From the NCBI GenBank assembly GCA_047517485.1, contig JAKZSU010000012.1:643-64642 (forward strand): a stretch of 64,000 nucleotides of DNA, read 5' to 3'. The translations under genes and the position numbers were made by a program. Within the stretch, counting starts at the first letter, position 1; every line of letters begins with the position of its first letter. Positions 3,035 through 63,576 of the stretch are shown here, in pieces. The notes under the pieces were generated by a model. The model had not been told where the DNA came from. It saw nothing but the letters and a program-made list of their open reading frames with translations, and did not search any database. The stretch comes from Alphaproteobacteria bacterium. GTDB lineage: Bacteria; Pseudomonadota; Alphaproteobacteria; UBA7887.

Positions 3035-5130
3035 GCCGATTGCGCGATCTCACGGCCCTCTTGCAGCCGCGTTCCGTCGCCATTATCGGCGCGACACCGG
3101 ACGTGCGTCGCCCGGGCGGGCGGCCTCTCGATTTTCTCCGCCGCTACGGCTTCGCCGGGCCGATCTACCCGGTCAATCCGCGTTACGACGATATCGACGG
3201 CGTGCGGTGCTATGCCAAGATCACCGATCTGCCCGAGCCCGCCGACATGGCGGTGGTCGTGGTCCCGGCGCCGGCGGTGTTGCAAACCCTGCGCGATTGT
3301 CAGACCGCCGGGGTCAAGGCGCTCACCATCTACACCTCGGGCTTTCGCGAGACCGGCGCGGAGGGCGCGGCGATGGAAGCCGAGCTCATCGAAGTGGCGA
3401 ACCAAGCCGGGACGCTGATCTGCGGGCCCAATTGCCAGGGGGTCGCCAATTTTCACGATTCGATGATCGCCAATTTCACCTCGGCGCTGGCGACCGAGGG
3501 AATCGACGCCGGGCCGATCGGCTTCGTCAGCCAGAGCGGCCTGTTCACCGGTATCGTCACTGCTGAGCTGCGCCGCCGCGGCCTCGGTCTCGGCTATCTA
3601 ATCAGCAGCGGCAACGAATCCGTGGTCGATTTCGCCGACGTGCTCGCCTTCATGGCCGAGGATCCGCGCATCAAGGTGGTCGCGGGCTATATGGAAGGCA
3701 TCCGCGACGGCGCCAAACTGCGCGCGGCGGCGGCGGTCGCGCGGCGCAACGGCAAGCCGATGATCCTGCTCAAGGTCGGGCGCTCGCCGGAAAGCGCGGC
3801 CGCGGCCGCCTCGCACACCGGGGCGATGGCGGGCGCCTACGAGGTCTATCAGGCGGCGCTCGCACAATGGGGCTTGATCGAGGTCGACTCGATCCGCGAG
3901 CTGTTCGACGCCATCGAGGCGTTCGCGGTGACCAGCGGCATCGCGCGCGGCGACAAGGCCGGCATTCTGACCAATTCCGGCGGCCTCGGTGTGTTCGGCG
4001 CCGACCAGGTTCGGTCCCAAGGTTTGGCGATGGCAACCTTCAGCGAAACAACCGTCGCCACCATCCAAGACCGCCTGCCGCAATTCGGCTCGGCGCGCAA
4101 CCCGATCGATTTCACCTTGCAGGCGTTTACCGATCCGCAGGCGGTGGGCGCGCACCTCAGACACATGATCACCGACGACGACGTCGATATCGGGCTGGTG
4201 TTCTTTGGCGTGCAATTGCTCAACGTCGATGCTCTGGTCAAGGAGATCACCGACGCCGACGCACTAAACGAAAAACCGATCCTGGTGTCGTGGATGCTCG
4301 GGGAGGCGAGCGCGCCACGGCGCCTCCGCGATGCCGGCATCCCCTGTTACGACGACCCCGAGTCGGCGATCAAGGCGGCGCGGCGGTTGGTCGAGCATGG
4401 CCGTCTCGCGGCGCACGCGGATGCCGCGCGCACACCATCGGCAATGGACGGGGTTGCGCAAAGGTTACCCGGCGCCGGGACGCTCTCAGAATGGCAAGCG
4501 CGCGCGGTTCTGCGGGTTGCCGGGATCGACACGGTGTGGGGCGCGCTCGCGGCCACCGTGGATGAGGCGGCCGCCGCGGCCGCTGCCATCGACGGGCCGG
4601 TGGTCCTCAAAATCGAATCCGCCGATATTGCCCATAAAAGCGAGGCGGGAGGTGTCGCCCTCGGGCTCGACGACGAAACCGCCGTACGAGAAGCATATGA
4701 GCAGGTGACCACGAGCGCGCGGGCTTATGCGCCGGACGCCGATATTACCGGGGTCGGTGTCTATGAGATGATCTCCGGCGCCGTCGAACTCATCGTCGGG
4801 ATCAGCCGCGACACTGCGTTCGGGCCGGTGATCCTGGTCGGCATGGGCGGGATCATGGCCGAAGTCATGGACGATTCCGCGCTCGGCGTGGCGCCACTCG
4901 ACCGCCCCCGCGCCGCGGCCATGCTCGCCTCGCTCAAGGGTTTTCCCATGCTCGACGGCGCGCGCGGCCGGCCCAAATGCGACACCGCCGCGGTGGTCGA
5001 TATTTTGCTGGCTTTGTCGGATCTAGCGCTCGCGTGTCCGAGCATCGGCGAACTCGATATCAACCCGCTGATGGTTATGCCGGTGGGCGAGGGGGCCAAG
5101 GCGGCGGACGCGCTGATTACCGTCAGCTAA
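3031..5130 (+). CDS. acyl-CoA synthetase (NDP/ADP-forming), fused CoA-binding + ATP-grasp subunits
   Basis: N-terminal CoA-binding domain (VAIIGATPD...YPVNPRYD...VPAPAV) followed by succinyl-CoA-synthetase-like and ATP-grasp regions. The GTG at 3031 overlaps the upstream stop; the track ORF 2869 is extended upstream and overlaps. Confidence 0.75.
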   Translation: MSRLRDLTALLQPRSVAIIGATPDVRRPGGRPLDFLRRYGFAGPIYPVNPRYDDIDGVRCYAKITDLPEPADMAVVVVPAPAVLQTLRDCQTAGVKALTIYTSGFRETGAEGAAMEAELIEVANQAGTLICGPNCQGVANFHDSMIANFTSALATEGIDAGPIGFVSQSGLFTGIVTAELRRRGLGLGYLISSGNESVVDFADVLAFMAEDPRIKVVAGYMEGIRDGAKLRAAAAVARRNGKPMILLKVGRSPESAAAAASHTGAMAGAYEVYQAALAQWGLIEVDSIRELFDAIEAFAVTSGIARGDKAGILTNSGGLGVFGADQVRSQGLAMATFSETTVATIQDRLPQFGSARNPIDFTLQAFTDPQAVGAHLRHMITDDDVDIGLVFFGVQLLNVDALVKEITDADALNEKPILVSWMLGEASAPRRLRDAGIPCYDDPESAIKAARRLVEHGRLAAHADAARTPSAMDGVAQRLPGAGTLSEWQARAVLRVAGIDTVWGALAATVDEAAAAAAAIDGPVVLKIESADIAHKSEAGGVALGLDDETAVREAYEQVTTSARAYAPDADITGVGVYEMISGAVELIVGISRDTAFGPVILVGMGGIMAEVMDDSALGVAPLDRPRAAAMLASLKGFPMLDGARGRPKCDTAAVVDILLALSDLALACPSIGELDINPLMVMPVGEGAKAADALITVS

Positions 5131-5737: not shown

Positions 5738-7899
5738 CCGATGAATTCGACGATCTAAAAATGACCTTGGCCGAGGACGCGCCGTCCTCGAATCCCGTGG
5801 CGCGCAAAGCCGCGATCAAGGCCGGACTGGTCGCGTTCGACGCGGAATTTTCCGCCGCCGCCCAAGGATCGCCGTCCCGAGAACGTCAAAGGGGAAGATT
5901 TTCATCAATCCTCCAAACCCTATTCGGGAGACGTTCCATGACCCTCACGCAACCCCGTTTTCGCTATGTCCTCGCCGGCGGCGCCAGCGTCGCCGTCCTC
6001 GCCCTGGTGGTCTTCGGCAGCAACTTGCCGCGCCAGTTTTCGCAAGAAATTTCATTGCAAAAAGTAGCCGACGACCGCTTGGCGGGCGACTACGACGAAG
6101 GCAAAGTCGTTGCGACGACGAGTCAGTTGAAGAGCGAAGTCGATGCCATTCTTGGCGGGCAGGAGGTGCGTCGCGAATTGGCGGTTCCGCTAACGGATTC
6201 AGAATCATTACCTAGATCGCGCAACAAGTCGGCGCAATTGCCACAATCCGTATCCGAACCGGAGGTTATGACTTGGCATGCACCCAGTGCCGATCAAACT
6301 GCCAAGTCGACTGAGGCCAACCGCGGAATCGCGCAAGAATCCTTTGCCGATTTGTCGGCCGACACCGGCGGGGTTGCCAGCGCGCCGGCGATCATGATGG
6401 AGCGTGCCGACGTGCAGGCCCGCATTGCCGACGCGCCCGCGAAGGCGCAGTACGAGGACCAAGGCCGCGATCGCTTTGCCGATATCGAGGCCAATCCGGT
6501 GAACGTGGTCGCCGAGCAACCGGTATCGACCTTCTCGATCGATGTCGACACCGCGTCCTATGCCTTCATGCGTGGCTCGCTGAACCAAGGCGTTTTGCCG
6601 CAGAAGGACGCGGTGCGTATCGAGGAGCTGATCAATTATTTCGACTACGACTACGCGCTGCCCGACGACCGCGAGGCGCCGTTCCGCGCCCACGTCTCGG
6701 TCATGCCGACGCCGTGGAACGACGAGACCCAGCTGATGAGCATCGGCATCAAGGGCTATGACCTCGACGCGGCGGAGAAACCGCACGCGAACCTGGTGTT
6801 CCTGATCGACACTTCGGGCTCGATGAACCATGAAAAAAAGCTGCCGTTGTTGATCAACTCTTTCAAACTGTTGCTCGACAGCCTCGACGCGGACGATACG
6901 GTGGCGATCGTCACGTATGCCGGCAGCGCGGGCACCGCGCTCGAGCCGACTAAAGTTTCTGAACGGGCGAAAATTCTCGCCAGTCTCGAACGCTTGCGAT
7001 CCGGCGGCTCGACCGCCGGCGCCGAGGGCATCCGCCAAGCCTATCTGTTGGCCGAGCAAAACCTCGTCGAGGACGGGGTGAACCGGGTGATCCTGGCCAC
7101 TGACGGCGATTTCAATGTCGGCATCACCGATCAGGAAGAACTCAAGAGCTACATCGAGCGCAAGCGCGAAACCGGGATCTCGCTCTCGGTCCTCGGCTTC
7201 GGCCGCGGCAACTACAACGACGAGCTGATGCAGATCCTCGCCCAGAACGGCAACGGCAACGCCGCCTATATCGACAACCTGTCGGAAGCACGAAAAGTAC
7301 TGGTCGAGGAAGCGACCTCGACTTTGTTCACCATCGCCAAGGACGTCAAGATCCAGATCGAGTTCAACCCGGCGACGGTCTCGGAGTATCGCCTGATCGG
7401 CTATGAGACCCGCATGCTCGCGCGCGAGGATTTCAACAATGACAAGATCGACGCCGGCGACATCGGCGCCGGGCATACGGTCACCGCGTTGTATGAATTG
7501 ACCCCGGTGGGTACCGGCGCCGAACGCATCGACTCGCTGCGCTATCAACCCTCCGCGGACGTGGAAGGAGAGGCGGCTTCGAGCGAGATGGCGTTCCTCA
7601 AGATTCGCTACAAACTGCCCGACAGCGACACCAGCACGTTAATCACCCAGGCGATCACCGAGGATAACGTCTCGAACGACGTGTCGTCGGCGCCCCGCGA
7701 GGCCCGCTTCGCCGCCGCCGTCGCCGGTTTTGGCCAGCTCTTGCGCGGCGGCCGCCATACCGGCGACTATGGCTATGACCATGTGATCGCCTTGGCGCAG
7801 GGCGCCAAGGGTGACGATGATTTCGGCTACCGGTCGGAATTCATCAGCTTGGTCCGCCTGGCGAAATCCGCCGCCGATTTGGAAGCGCTCCGTCGCTAA
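5734..7899 (+). CDS. membrane anti-sigma-like protein with periplasmic von Willebrand A (vWA) + DUF3520-like domains (YfbK-like)
   Basis: 4-bp ATGA overlap with the sigma gene. One TM helix (YVLAGGASVAVLALVVFG) follows a short cytoplasmic N-terminus. MIDAS motif DTSGSM and a vWA fold. Confidence 0.75.
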   Translation: MTDEFDDLKMTLAEDAPSSNPVARKAAIKAGLVAFDAEFSAAAQGSPSRERQRGRFSSILQTLFGRRSMTLTQPRFRYVLAGGASVAVLALVVFGSNLPRQFSQEISLQKVADDRLAGDYDEGKVVATTSQLKSEVDAILGGQEVRRELAVPLTDSESLPRSRNKSAQLPQSVSEPEVMTWHAPSADQTAKSTEANRGIAQESFADLSADTGGVASAPAIMMERADVQARIADAPAKAQYEDQGRDRFADIEANPVNVVAEQPVSTFSIDVDTASYAFMRGSLNQGVLPQKDAVRIEELINYFDYDYALPDDREAPFRAHVSVMPTPWNDETQLMSIGIKGYDLDAAEKPHANLVFLIDTSGSMNHEKKLPLLINSFKLLLDSLDADDTVAIVTYAGSAGTALEPTKVSERAKILASLERLRSGGSTAGAEGIRQAYLLAEQNLVEDGVNRVILATDGDFNVGITDQEELKSYIERKRETGISLSVLGFGRGNYNDELMQILAQNGNGNAAYIDNLSEARKVLVEEATSTLFTIAKDVKIQIEFNPATVSEYRLIGYETRMLAREDFNNDKIDAGDIGAGHTVTALYELTPVGTGAERIDSLRYQPSADVEGEAASSEMAFLKIRYKLPDSDTSTLITQAITEDNVSNDVSSAPREARFAAAVAGFGQLLRGGRHTGDYGYDHVIALAQGAKGDDDFGYRSEFISLVRLAKSAADLEALRR

Positions 7900-17949: not shown

Positions 17950-20136
17950 ATGACCGCTGTGGAGGTCAGTAAGAAACGGTCTCCGCAGATACGCCAGTAT
18001 GATTTGGTCGAGCGGGTCAGCGCTCACGACCCCGGTGCCGATGAGCAAGCGCTCAATCGGGCCTATGTATTTTCGATGTCGCGCCACGGCGCCCAAAAGC
18101 GGGACTCCGGCGACCCCTATTTCTCCCACCCGCTCGAAGTCGCCGGCATCCTCGCCGATCTGAAATTGGATTCGGCGTCGGTCATCACCGGGCTTCTCCA
18201 CGACACGGTCGAGGATGGCGTCGCCGAGCAACCGGAGATCCGGACACTTTTCGGCGAGGAAATCGGCCGCCTTGTCGATGGTGTCACCAAGCTCAGCAAA
18301 ATCGAGCTGCAGTCTCATACCGAACGTCAGGCGGAGAATTTTCAGAAGTTCCTGCTCGCGATGTCCGAGGATATTCGTGTGCTGTTGGTCAAGCTCGCCG
18401 ATCGGCTGCACAACATGCGGACCCTGGAATTCATCCCGAAATCGGATAAACGACGTCGCATCGCCCTCGAGACGATGGAGATTTATGCGCCCCTGGCGGA
18501 GCGCATCGGCATGCAACGTCTCAAGGATGAATTGGAAGATCTCGCGTTCGCCGAGCTCAACTCGGAAGCGCGCGCCTCCTTGGTGACCCGGTTGGAGTTT
18601 CTGCACCGAACCGAGGGCCAACTGGTTCCGGTCATCGCCGAGGAACTCGAGACCACGTTGACGCGGGAAGGCATCAAGGCCGATGTCGCTGGTCGGGAGA
18701 AACGGCCCTATTCGATTTGGCGCAAGATGGAGCGCAAACATATTCCGTTCGAACAAATCGCCGACGTCATCGCGTTTCGCATCATTGTTGATGACGCGGC
18801 CGCTTGCTACCAAGCGCTGGGCGCGGTTCATCGCGCCTATCCGATGATCCCGGGACGTTTCAAGGATTACGTCTCGACGCCGAAACAAAACGGCTATCGC
18901 TCGCTGCATACCGCGGTCATCGGGCCGCAGAAACGGCGCATCGAAATTCAAATCCGCGACCATCACATGCACGAGATCGCCGAGCTCGGTGTTGCCGCGC
19001 ATTGGCTCTACAAGCGGGGTGCCGACGATAATGCGGCGCGGCCCCATGAAGGGCGGCAATATGGTTGGCTTCGCCACCTCCTCGACATTCTCGAACACGC
19101 GTCGGGGCCGGAGGAATTTCTCGAACACACCAAGCTCGAGATGTTCGCCGACCAGGTGTTTTGCTTTTCCCCGAAAGGCGACTTGATCACCCTGCCGCAC
19201 GGCGCGACGCCGGTGGATTTCGCCTATGCCGTCCATTCCGATATTGGCGACACCTGTGTCGGGGCCAAGATCAACGGCCGGCTCGGGCCGCTCCGCACTA
19301 TTCTGAGCAATGGCGATCAAGTCGAGATCCTGCGGTCCAGCGTTCCCGCGCCCGACCCCAATTGGGAGAATTTCGTGGTCACCGGCAAGGCGCGGGCGCG
19401 GGTGCGGCGTTTCGTACGCCAGCGCGAGAGCGCCGAATATGCCAGCCTCGGACGATCCATCCTCGAAAAGACCTTCGCCAATCACGACCAGCCGTTCAAC
19501 GACCAGCAAGTCAAGCCGGTATTCGATAAGTTCAACGTTTCCAAGGCTTCCGAATTATGCGCCGCGGTTGGCCGCGGCGAGATCGATCCGAATTTGGTCC
19601 TCACCGCCGTGCGGCCCGATCTCTCGGCCGACTCGAACACCGTGGTGCCGATCGCGCGCGGTCAACGCCAGCGTGGGCCCGGCGGCGCGGTGCCGATCAA
19701 GGGTTTAACCCCTGGCATGGCGGTGCATATGGCGGAGTGCTGTTATCCGTTGCCCGGCGACCGCATTGTGGGGTTGGTCACAGAAGGGCGCGGCGTCACC
19801 GTCCACACTATCGATTGTGATGTATTGGAGAGTTTTTCCAATGCGCCGGAACGCTGGCTGGACATCAGCTGGCAAACCGAACGCGATTTGCCCGACGTGC
19901 ATACCGGGAGCATCGTCACGGTGATCAATAATGTCCCGGGCAGCTTGAACGCGCTGACCGAGGCGATCGCGCGCAACGGCGGTAACATCAGTAATTTGAA
20001 AGTGGATTATCGTTCGCCGGATTTTTTCGAACTCGTGGTCGATGTCGAAGTCGAGGACGTTCGCCATTTGACCACTATCGTTGCCGCCTTGCGCACCGAC
20101 CCGGCGATCTACCGCGTCGAACGCGCCCGCGGTTAG
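17950..20136 (+). CDS. spoT: bifunctional (p)ppGpp synthetase/hydrolase (Rsh/SpoT)
   Basis: HD hydrolase (HPLEVA...HDTVED), RelA/SpoT synthetase (RPYSIWRKM), TGS and ACT-like C-terminus; 728 aa. Confidence 0.9.
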   Translation: MTAVEVSKKRSPQIRQYDLVERVSAHDPGADEQALNRAYVFSMSRHGAQKRDSGDPYFSHPLEVAGILADLKLDSASVITGLLHDTVEDGVAEQPEIRTLFGEEIGRLVDGVTKLSKIELQSHTERQAENFQKFLLAMSEDIRVLLVKLADRLHNMRTLEFIPKSDKRRRIALETMEIYAPLAERIGMQRLKDELEDLAFAELNSEARASLVTRLEFLHRTEGQLVPVIAEELETTLTREGIKADVAGREKRPYSIWRKMERKHIPFEQIADVIAFRIIVDDAAACYQALGAVHRAYPMIPGRFKDYVSTPKQNGYRSLHTAVIGPQKRRIEIQIRDHHMHEIAELGVAAHWLYKRGADDNAARPHEGRQYGWLRHLLDILEHASGPEEFLEHTKLEMFADQVFCFSPKGDLITLPHGATPVDFAYAVHSDIGDTCVGAKINGRLGPLRTILSNGDQVEILRSSVPAPDPNWENFVVTGKARARVRRFVRQRESAEYASLGRSILEKTFANHDQPFNDQQVKPVFDKFNVSKASELCAAVGRGEIDPNLVLTAVRPDLSADSNTVVPIARGQRQRGPGGAVPIKGLTPGMAVHMAECCYPLPGDRIVGLVTEGRGVTVHTIDCDVLESFSNAPERWLDISWQTERDLPDVHTGSIVTVINNVPGSLNALTEAIARNGGNISNLKVDYRSPDFFELVVDVEVEDVRHLTTIVAALRTDPAIYRVERARG

Positions 20137-20400
20137 AGCATGCCATCTCTTAATGGAACCGGTTTGATGGGCCAAATTGGCTTTTCGGGTAGGCGCGGCG
20201 CGATGGGCGATGTGTGTGCATCGGCAGAGCGTCGCAACGCACCAGAAAAGCCAAGTTGGCCCACCGAAGGCCGCGTTCCCGCAGCCCCTGGCCGCGTCGC
20301 GCGCCTTGCCCGATGCACCCACATCGCGCGGCGCCGCGCTCCTAGCCAGGGGCTGCGGGAACGCGGTCAAACCGGTTCCATTAAGAGATGACATGCTCTA
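20134..20400. repeat. ~267-bp nested inverted-repeat (multi-hairpin) element in the spoT to DUF2062 intergenic region
   Basis: Outer 34-nt arms at 20134-20167 and 20367-20400 (1 mismatch). Inner perfect 22-nt inverted repeat at 20271-20292 / 20345-20366. A second hairpin lies at 20169-20186 / 20245-20262 (1 mismatch). The two hairpin loops are about 75-80% complementary to each other. Confidence 0.7.
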
Positions 20401-20433
20401 AATCCGGCTTGAGCAGGCATTTCGGGGGCACCG

Positions 20434-21024
20434 GTGTTTGGTAGGCGACAGCGTCTCGCATGGACGGATTGGGTAGGCCGAATTTTCTGGCCGCGAACCG
20501 GTTGGCGTCGCGCCGGTGCCTATTTCAGCCATCGGGTCAGGCGTTTGCCCGGGTCTCCGTACAGCATCGCGGTTGGTGTCGCGTGCGGTGTCGCGGTCTC
20601 GTTCACGCCGCTGATCGGATTGCATTTCGTTATCGCCGTGATTCTGGCGTGGCTGCTCGGCGGCAGTCTAATCGCTTCGGCGCTCGGCACCGCGGTCGGC
20701 AATCCCTGGACGTTTCCGCTGATTTGGATCGCCAGTTATCGTCTGGGGTCGTGGATGCTTGGATTGGAGCCCAATGTCGATGGGTTGACGATGGAGGACA
20801 TTCGGCAAAACTTTTTGGCGGTGTTCTTGCCGATGATGGTCGGCGGGCTGGTGTTGGGCATTGTTGCGTGGCTGGGCTCGTTCTGGCTTGTCCGACGCGC
20901 GGTCTCGCGCTATCAGCTCATCCGCCTGTCGCGGATTCGCCGCCGTGCGGAACGGAGCGCGGTGGCGCAGATCAAAGAGGCCTCCGGCGATGACAGCCGT
21001 CAAGGTGGCCCCGACGCCGGTTAA
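20434..21024 (+). CDS. DUF2062-like polytopic membrane protein
   Basis: Three to four TM segments with an arginine-rich N-terminus. Its position immediately upstream of pdxJ is a common alphaproteobacterial arrangement. Family assigned from memory. Confidence 0.6.
   Translation: MFGRRQRLAWTDWVGRIFWPRTGWRRAGAYFSHRVRRLPGSPYSIAVGVACGVAVSFTPLIGLHFVIAVILAWLLGGSLIASALGTAVGNPWTFPLIWIASYRLGSWMLGLEPNVDGLTMEDIRQNFLAVFLPMMVGGLVLGIVAWLGSFWLVRRAVSRYQLIRLSRIRRRAERSAVAQIKEASGDDSRQGGPDAG

Positions 21025-62917: not shown

Positions 62918-63576
<659 letters not shown>

Follow-up and report, generated by a model that had tools for sequence, protein, structure and literature searches.

The stretch of DNA analysed here (hereafter the window) is a 64,000-nt segment of contig JAKZSU010000012.1 from an Alphaproteobacteria bacterium assembly (GCA_047517485.1), in which the local gene order is folK, rpoZ, spoT, DUF2062, pdxJ. 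The spoT/rsh gene (17950-20136, + strand) encodes a 728 aa bifunctional (p)ppGpp synthetase/hydrolase with the Pfam domains HD_4, RelA_SpoT, TGS and ACT_4, and is followed by a gene identified by its Pfam DUF2062 domain (20434-21024, + strand). From the stop of spoT (20136) to the beginning of DUF2062 (20434), the spacer is 297 nt long. A first-pass annotation made from the sequence alone had described this spacer as filled by one large structured element; 267 of the 297 nt belong to it, and a comparison with homologous loci indicates that these 267 nt (20134-20400) are very probably a non-coding, non-autonomous mobile element resembling MITEs (miniature inverted-repeat transposable elements), and a member of a family found across the Alphaproteobacteria.

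The nested inverted repeats proposed in the first-pass annotation are real, with repeat search and folding both recovering the outer arms, the two hairpins and the junction between them. The element is laid out as TA, a 32-nt arm, two long hairpins, a second 32-nt arm and TA. The left TA (20134-20135), one copy of the inferred target-site duplication, was delimited from the flanks shared by family copies and from in-silico excision (see below), and is followed by the left outer arm, or terminal inverted repeat, GAGCATGCCATCTCTTAATGGAACCGGTTTGA (20136-20167, + strand), which was defined by repeat search and comparison of copies. Its terminal GAGC and inner GGAACCGGTTTGA are conserved, and positions 5-20 are peculiar to the window copy. 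The right outer arm (20367-20398, - strand; repeat search) has one mismatch to the left arm and is followed by the right TA (20399-20400), the second copy of the duplication on the same evidence as the first. As delimited by the repeat search, the outer arms span 20133-20167 and 20367-20401 (35 nt, 97% complementary), and the left one contains the spoT stop codon TAG (20134-20136), an overlap that had been missed; this TAG consists of the duplicated TA and the first G of the element.

Arm 1 (20168-20264, + strand) is a long imperfect hairpin capped by a conserved module, as determined by repeat search, folding and an alignment of arms. Its variable stem falls within 20163-20190 / 20241-20268 (28 nt, 86% complementary), the core of which is what had been annotated as an 18-bp stem with one mismatch. 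Conserved apical module 1 (TAGGCGCGGCGCG..GCGATG-loop-CATCGG..AGCGTCGCAACGC; 20191-20240) is sense on the + strand and was defined by an nhmmer profile (match at 20185-20244, + strand, E = 2.7e-14) and by alignments of whole elements (A1) and of arms (A2). An unpaired linker, CGAAGG (20265-20270, + strand), lies at the three-way junction inside the conserved CCACCGAAGGCCG motif, according to the fold and the alignments. Arm 2 (20271-20366, + strand; repeat search and fold) has a perfect 22-bp stem (20271-20292 / 20345-20366, 100% complementary), exactly as annotated previously, and carries conserved apical module 2 (20293-20344), which repeats module 1 in inverted orientation and is therefore sense on the - strand (nhmmer match at 20349-20289, - strand, E = 5.7e-13; 70% identity to module 1).

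Folding of the + and - strands gave one shared three-way junction, with minimum free energies of -197.8 and -201.5 kcal/mol, respectively, relative to approximately -119 +/- 5 for dinucleotide shuffles (z = -15.0 and -17.1, respectively; 0 of 200 shuffles equal the native fold). A terminator scan of 19900-20600 returned 0 terminator-like sites, and an intrinsic (Rho-independent) terminator was rejected because a T-run is absent behind every stem, the sequence directly after the element being AATCCGGCTTGAGC. No promoter was predicted in the element, and the Rfam scan recommended by the first-pass annotation gave no match in the window at the gathering threshold, the best sub-threshold matches (search to E <= 10) being to plant microRNA precursor models (E >= 0.14).

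The same annotation had described the element as kissing-hairpin-like, with loops that are 75-80% complementary to each other. The two 54-nt loops (20187-20240 and 20294-20347) are indeed mutually complementary, at 72%, and loop-loop complementarity of 57-75% is found in every family copy because the tip of arm 2 is an inverted copy of the tip of arm 1, the two being 60-75% alike in each copy. The loops at the very tips (3-5 nt) vary freely, and only in a few copies are the two complementary to each other. A kissing-loop interaction conserved across the family was therefore rejected, given that the terminal loops of most family members are not complementary, and the likeness to kissing hairpins is a by-product of the inverted tip modules. 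The three small open reading frames (ORFs) inside the element, correctly suspected of not being genes, have no Pfam match, are not called as genes in eight contigs from the same species and are unconserved across subfamilies; stop codons interrupt every frame of the element, which therefore has no coding capacity. A 229-aa antisense ORF (19705-20394, - strand) also crosses the element, continues into spoT at its 3' end and is probably a GC-rich shadow ORF starting at an ATG within the arm.

In order to place the element in a wider context, homologues were collected by several routes. BLAST of a plasmid collection identified one locus, on a plasmid of Agrobacterium sp. MA01, with the same layout of 33-nt outer arms and two hairpins; its arm and stem sequences differ from those of the window copy and the likeness is confined to the "loops". 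Species-representative genomes were then scanned with a loop-derived motif, which gave at least 113 loci including many chance matches, and the loop unit was recovered from the scanned loci by BLAST and the nhmmer profile. The tip-module unit was found at at least 45 loci in at least 29 assemblies, and at 20 or more loci a convergent pair of units lies approximately 105 nt apart and folds to the same junction. All of the carrier assemblies that are labelled to class are Alphaproteobacteria, with carriers in Rhizobiaceae, Hyphomicrobiaceae, Roseibium, Mycoplana, Rhodospirillaceae, Inquilinaceae, Kiloniellaceae, Pelagibius and Denitrobaculum; further carriers are metagenome-assembled genomes (MAGs), for some of which the label is no more specific than Proteobacteria, Pseudomonadota or "uncultured bacterium". 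Single assemblies contain several copies with unrelated flanks (at least five loci in JADFJG and at least six in JAZGAE, as well as at least three each in JACZQV, JADFTO and CBDEGD, again with differing flanks), and copies adjoin unrelated genes (thiolase, acyl-CoA dehydrogenase, epimerase) in both orientations and also on a plasmid. A second scan with the commonest arm sequence as the query gave 29 more metagenome loci. The dispersed-repeat alternative raised in the first-pass annotation, a MITE/RIME-like element with many dispersed copies, therefore holds for the family. The genome-scan pattern lay inside the tip module, so that these positions are invariant in A1 and A2 partly by construction; conservation of the module is backed by retrievals independent of the motif scan, namely BLAST and ORF homology.

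Many of the family copies are located at contig ends. Three independent short-read contigs of the same species as the window (L121, L123 and L124) also break inside the element, 65, 7 and 41 nt into it, respectively, which weakly suggests repetition of the element in that genome or, alternatively, breakage of assemblies at its palindromes. Spurious ORFs across element copies have been deposited as hypothetical proteins of 56-105 aa (P0121-P0129, at loci L163-L170), and such proteins can be used to retrieve more copies. In one MAG (L073, 234-545) the palindrome runs perfectly into both flanks over at least 312 nt examined, near a contig end; the element is probably the centre of an artefact here, in which the assembly folds back on itself.

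Contigs encoding an identical SpoT, here termed conspecific, came from one MAG and several metagenomes. Eight of these span the region and all carry the element, unchanged in seven and with three substitutions in one. The nearest SpoT relatives (L125, L126 and L128, with 88, 83 and 75% SpoT identity, respectively) have the same gene order and no element, and in these spoT is followed within a few bases by DUF2062 or a phosphoribosyltransferase gene; DUF2062 lies 3 nt after spoT, or directly behind the intervening phosphoribosyltransferase gene. SpoT ends at the same residue in the window and the relatives, as ...ERARG* or ...ERAHG*, the C-terminus in the window (...YRVERARG*) being identical to that in relatives lacking the element. 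In-silico removal of the element and one TA leaves GGT TAA ATCC, and GGT TAA is the real stop context in L126, from which it follows that the element entered the TAA stop codon of spoT. As the element starts with G, the upstream TA reads TAG and SpoT is unchanged. Insertion would have occurred at a T-TA-A site with duplication of the TA, and we consider it highly probable that 20134-20400 is one copy of the dispersed family, inserted at spoT. A phosphoribosyltransferase gene (195-201 aa) lies between spoT and DUF2062 in L125 (4699-5286) and L126 (4674-5279), and none is present at 20137-20433 of the window or in the 75% relative L128; as this gene is found in only some relatives, its gain or loss at the junction is separate from insertion of the repeat.

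The distribution of the element bears directly on the proposal, also made in the first-pass annotation, that it is a structured non-coding RNA or attenuator tied to spoT. A cis-regulatory structure specific to this locus (an attenuator, terminator or small RNA serving spoT or the downstream operon) would fit the position of the element directly behind a stringent-response gene, where it occupies the spacer, as well as its extreme stability on both strands and its fixation across the conspecific contigs. It is contradicted by the distribution of the family, with the three nearest relatives lacking the element at the same site and homologues elsewhere standing beside unrelated genes in both orientations, one of them on a plasmid, and the T-run of a terminator is absent. 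We regard this explanation as extremely improbable.

Comparison of the ends of copies indicated how insertion may occur. The pattern Y-TA-GAGC...GCTC-TA-R is common to all 16 distinct copies with such ends, and the flanks are mostly C..G, T..A in four copies (the window copy, L098, L135 and L154) and T..G in L134. Since the inner G/C is invariant and the outer bases vary, TA is taken to be the duplication and YTAR the preferred site, the targets observed being CTAG, TTAA or TTAG. A 4-bp CTAG duplication was excluded by the TTAG...CTAA copies and by the TTAG...CTAG copy, and a longer inverted repeat was excluded by L134 (t...g) and the TTAG...CTAA copies. The terminal TAG closes a long ORF in 10 of the 16 copies (for example >1474, 474, 418 and 377 codons), with one such ORF at each end of L056. 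The background is high, with 42% of YTAR sites in the window (62.7% GC) closing an ORF of at least 100 codons, and enrichment for stop codons beyond the target preference was not significant (p = 0.08). YTAR sites in GC-rich genomes are often stop codons, which explains why this copy sits immediately 3' of spoT. Elements of the Rhizobiaceae branch have different ends, TNA-TACCAAG...CTTGGTA-TNA (L001, L006/L092, L068, L080, L103 and L130), and the N is the same on both sides in four of six independent copies.

IS630 elements duplicate TA at NTAN/CTAG-type targets. The YTAR flanks of the family are compatible with IS630/Tc1-mariner transposition; IS5/IS427 flanks are alike, and the flanks hence do not discriminate between these groups. 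Movement would be catalysed in trans by a TA-duplicating DDE transposase, either IS630/Tc1-mariner-like or IS5/IS427-like. The search for an autonomous parent yielded only relatives of the same kind. Arm-only BLAST of plasmids gave short MITE-like relatives and no parent, the matches being a 170-bp one-armed variant, a relic of approximately 110 bp in Ensifer and a solo arm. The metagenome loci found with the commonest arm comprised full copies, half copies and relics of approximately 34 nt, with no transposase, and a regular-expression search through 1.14 Mb of loci for TAGAGC ends in inverted orientation, at a spacing of 0.6-3.5 kb, gave nothing new. One candidate (L151), with two arm matches 1.6 kb apart, proved to be two copies around an acyl-CoA dehydrogenase gene. 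These are a full copy (5765-6032) and a truncated copy (7258-7343) in inverted orientation, a layout resembling a composite transposon, and the upstream thiolase gene at this locus terminates in the TAG of the element.

Reduced forms of the element were also observed. Hairpin relics of approximately 34 nt (TAGAGCGGTTCTTGGTAGATAGGAACCGCTCTGG and variants) are present at at least four distinct loci, the sites being L136 about 2740-2775 (= L146 1983-), L139 about 850-882, L148 887-, L157 1849- (= L161 4289-) and L135 about 1244-1276 (= L144 3302-). In each of these relics, 25 nt from the start of the left arm are fused to 9 nt from the end of the right arm; they could be recurrent internal deletions at GAA microhomology or a minimal mobile form. 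One-armed variants of approximately 170 bp have the same outer arms and a single hairpin with its module (L130 about 4001-4170 and L086 4589-4700); the copy in L130, on plasmid pHM1 of Rhizobium sp. SSA_523, lies directly against the TAA stop codon of a gene annotated as an epimerase.

Several observations weigh against the conclusion that the element at spoT is a mobile repeat moved by a TA-duplicating transposase. There is one copy in the 64-kb window, with no second site for the outer arm sequence, and a 21-mer from the window arm had 0 matches in JGI metagenomes. The relatives with empty sites are distant and their gene content differs (two have the phosphoribosyltransferase gene), such that they yield no base-for-base empty site. 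No transposase-bearing element with matching ends was found in the plasmids, the 29 metagenome loci or the 1.14 Mb of loci. Taken by itself, a duplication of 2 bp is weak evidence, and the matching N in Rhizobiaceae-branch copies hints that this branch duplicates a 3-bp TNA and not TA. Finally, arm positions 5-20 are replaced between copies with interiors that are 86-92% identical, which is unexpected for a purely sequence-specific transposase.

For the analysis of covariation, the arms (A2) and the outer stem (A3) were treated separately, because outer arms of different subfamilies had been wrongly aligned in the MAFFT alignment of whole elements (A1). RNAalifold analysis of 37 distinct arms in A2 gave 35 pairs, 29 of which have changed on both sides, with 90.9% of cells paired, compared to 36-44% with slid partners, and a covariation score of 0.50, compared to 0.13 or less; 0 of 500 shuffles reached the observed values. 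The arm stems form 18 clades that share 46% identity, whereas the tip module is 79% identical between clades. Relatives retrieved by a search with the spurious 83-aa ORF of the element (L163-L170) have interiors with 86-92% (L163-L168) or approximately 74% (L169 and L170) identity to the window copy, yet their outer-arm positions 5-20 are wholly different and of three types, with the two arms of each copy still matching. Across 21 distinct outer stems (A3), 94.6% of cells are paired and 20 of 24 pairs have changed on both sides (covariation score of 0.80, compared to 0.12 or less with slid partners). The GAGC/GCTC at the termini does not vary, and the junction motif TTTGA lies at a constant 26-27 nt from the terminus. 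The conserved parts of the family are the terminal GAGC, the junction sequences and a module of approximately 50 nt at each hairpin tip. At one locus (L053, 2465-2733) a T-to-C change at arm position 11 is accompanied by the complementary change in the other arm, and two further copies in the same MAG, JADFJG (L056 and L100), have neither change, which points to concerted change of the two arms.

These data raise the possibility that the family is defined and propagated by its three-helix fold and not by the sequence of its inverted repeat, that is, as a structure-defined mobile element recognised or selected as folded single-stranded DNA or RNA. We put this forward tentatively, as the less probable view of the family. 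Under the favoured reading of a transposase-mobilised repeat, too, the fold would matter in the single-stranded state, either as DNA during transposition or as RNA produced by read-through from the upstream gene. Whole elements fold equally well on both strands, with 83 and 70 G-U pairs. Analysed arm by arm, the module-sense strand is more stable in 35 of the 37 arms, by a mean of 5.3 kcal/mol, and contains 78 G-U-type cells compared to 18 A-C cells; counted per stem clade in the variable helix, there are 19 G-U-type and 6 A-C (p = 0.015). As arms share ancestry, these strand statistics are weakened, and 35/37 does not represent 37 independent events. Because the modules are inverted, each arm has its "sense" strand reading 5' to 3' inward from the nearer end, and the symmetry may reflect either folding of a specific DNA strand at each transposon end or RNA entering from either flank; the data fit both.

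Selection as RNA would make the element a mobile cassette in which the first arm, folded in read-through transcripts of the upstream gene, serves to stabilise 3' ends, as a site of processing or as a factor-dependent barrier to transcription in both directions. Its benefit, or its lack of harm, would then account for conservation of the fold. Such a cassette is compatible with mobility and differs only in what maintains the structure. Strong covariation in all three helices, the excess of G-U-type over A-C cells with the better fold on the module-sense strand, and the inverted modules, owing to which the first arm encountered by a gene that reads in from either flank is a "sense" one, are as it would predict, and a long ORF ends in the terminal TAG in the 10 of 16 copies noted above. 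However, this stop-codon association is no stronger than the YTAR background, the stems lack T-runs and the element has neither a predicted promoter nor an Rfam match. Furthermore, G-U counts and energies over the whole element are the same on both strands, the result for 35 of 37 arms is weakened by shared ancestry, and the strand symmetry is equally expected if one DNA strand folds per transposon end. Selection as RNA is consequently a doubtful explanation, although one we take seriously.

Alternatively, the folded intermediate could be single-stranded DNA that is recognised by its shape, in the manner of IS200/IS605 ends, REPINs with their RAYT transposases or integron attC sites, in place of a DDE transposase reading a conserved inverted-repeat sequence. 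Under this explanation arm positions 5-20 and both hairpin stems could be replaced between subfamilies while remaining complementary, the terminus-to-junction helix would keep its constant length, conservation would be restricted to the terminal GAGC, junction motifs and tip modules, and the per-arm strand bias would be symmetric about both ends, all of which are seen. On the other hand, IS200/IS605 elements and REPINs have no terminal inverted repeats or target duplications and this family has both, for which reason an IS200/IS605 or REPIN type was rejected outright on the long inverted repeats and TA flanks. No tyrosine/HUH transposase gene was noticed beside the copies, the neighbours not having been screened systematically. 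In addition, template switching at quasi-palindromes can also change both arms in concert without selection. We consider shape recognition of single-stranded DNA unlikely.

The conclusion that the element is a MITE-like repeat was further assessed against known repeat families. Bacterial MITEs are usually <200 bp and up to about 400 bp, and contain no transposase gene (PMC3184786). The element at spoT is 267 bp with no Pfam-matching ORF, has terminal inverted repeats (the 35-nt, 97% complementary arms) as does every full copy, and is flanked by TA on both sides in 16 of 16 distinct copies including the window copy, a duplication of only 2 bp. Filled and empty sites are represented by the window and by the spoT 3' ends of L125, L126 and L128, although these relatives are distant (75-88%), and multiple copies are represented by the at least three to six loci per assembly in other genomes, compared with one copy in the source 64 kb. 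Leaving aside the parent element and the copy number in the source genome, the family agrees with this working definition.

Among bacterial MITEs that duplicate TA, the closest comparisons are RUP (Streptococcus pneumoniae), Nezha (cyanobacteria) and Correia/NEMIS (Neisseria) (PMC2229807, PMC3184786). The family shares with these a small size, lack of coding capacity, terminal inverted repeats, TA flanks, a dispersed and mostly intergenic distribution, sites that are filled or empty depending on the genome, and folding of the whole element as a long stable stem-loop. It differs in that RUP, Nezha and Correia/NEMIS form a single hairpin, whereas this family forms a three-way junction with two arms of approximately 45 bp; in that the middle of its inverted repeat is unconserved between subfamilies while the interior modules are conserved; and in that the ends of RUP and Nezha match a known IS630-family element, while no parent was found here. 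Two-armed repeats have been described, namely bcr1, with two stem-loops, in the Bacillus cereus group (Firmicutes) (PMC3184786), and CIR (CcrM-associated intergenic repeats) in Caulobacter and Brucella, which is approximately 110 bp and consists of two arms and a linker with a conserved GANTC at the terminal loop (PMC2229807). The two independent stem-loops are a feature in common with both, and CIR is likewise found in Alphaproteobacteria, but CIR has no 5'-3' closing stem equivalent to the outer-arm stem. The window copy contains 0 GANTC sites; 10 of 16 aligned copies also have none, and the other 6 have GANTC in the outer arm. Identity with CIR was therefore rejected on size (267 bp) and the lack of GANTC in the window copy. 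For its part, bcr1 is approximately 155 bp with different target repeats. The two-armed architecture is accordingly uncommon and not unprecedented.

The first-pass annotation had also likened the element to RIMEs (Rhizobium-specific intergenic mosaic elements). These were reportedly described by Osteras and colleagues in 1995 as 108-109 bp repeats that are limited to Rhizobiaceae and abundant in S. meliloti, with RIME1 and RIME2 said to be intergenic and mosaic and to contain two large palindromes. The family resembles RIME1/RIME2 in its intergenic location, its two palindromes, its mosaic nature and its alphaproteobacterial hosts; it differs in occurring also in Rhodospirillales-like and marine lineages. 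BLAST of the element against the plasmid collection, which includes pSymB, gave no match on any Sinorhizobium replicon, and this, together with the size (267 compared with 108 bp), led to rejection of RIME1/RIME2 identity. Plant Stowaway MITEs are eukaryotic, are mobilised by Tc1/mariner transposases and have no conserved internal two-arm architecture; they offer an analogy only, in their TA duplication, in a short terminal motif that is conserved beside subterminal sequence that varies, and in a strong tendency to form hairpins. In the literature searched, no paper contained the conserved motif strings, and the reviews found on MITEs and RIMEs did not describe this family, which seems to be undescribed. 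Outside the region discussed here, a tRNA gene (71.3 bits) was detected near the end of the window (63500-63573).

For annotation, the block at 20134-20400 should be masked as a repeat, with no entry as an attenuator of spoT, as a small RNA or as small genes. As an object it is of an ordinary kind, a small palindromic mobile repeat whose arrival in the stop codon of spoT was harmless, and it illustrates how mobile DNA can land in a stop codon and regenerate a stop codon in doing so. The SpoT protein is intact, and a 267-nt structure now splits spoT from genes that directly follow it in relatives. Its effect at spoT would most likely be passive: a very stable structure placed before DUF2062-pdxJ-acpS-lepB-rnc may hinder read-through or offer RNase sites, and could in this way uncouple the expression of spoT and the downstream genes in this lineage. 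If the family is indeed defined by its fold, it would represent a class of bacterial MITE with RNA-like covariation that is absent from Rfam, in which the helices are free to change as long as they pair and each end carries its tip module of approximately 50 nt on the inward strand, and it would possibly act as a portable module that lands in stop codons and there provides a 3' end or a barrier to transcripts in both directions. The family occurs widely in little-studied Alphaproteobacteria of marine and soil origin, and its combination of covarying helices with an unconserved inverted repeat offers a clean test case for whether transposition reads structure or sequence.

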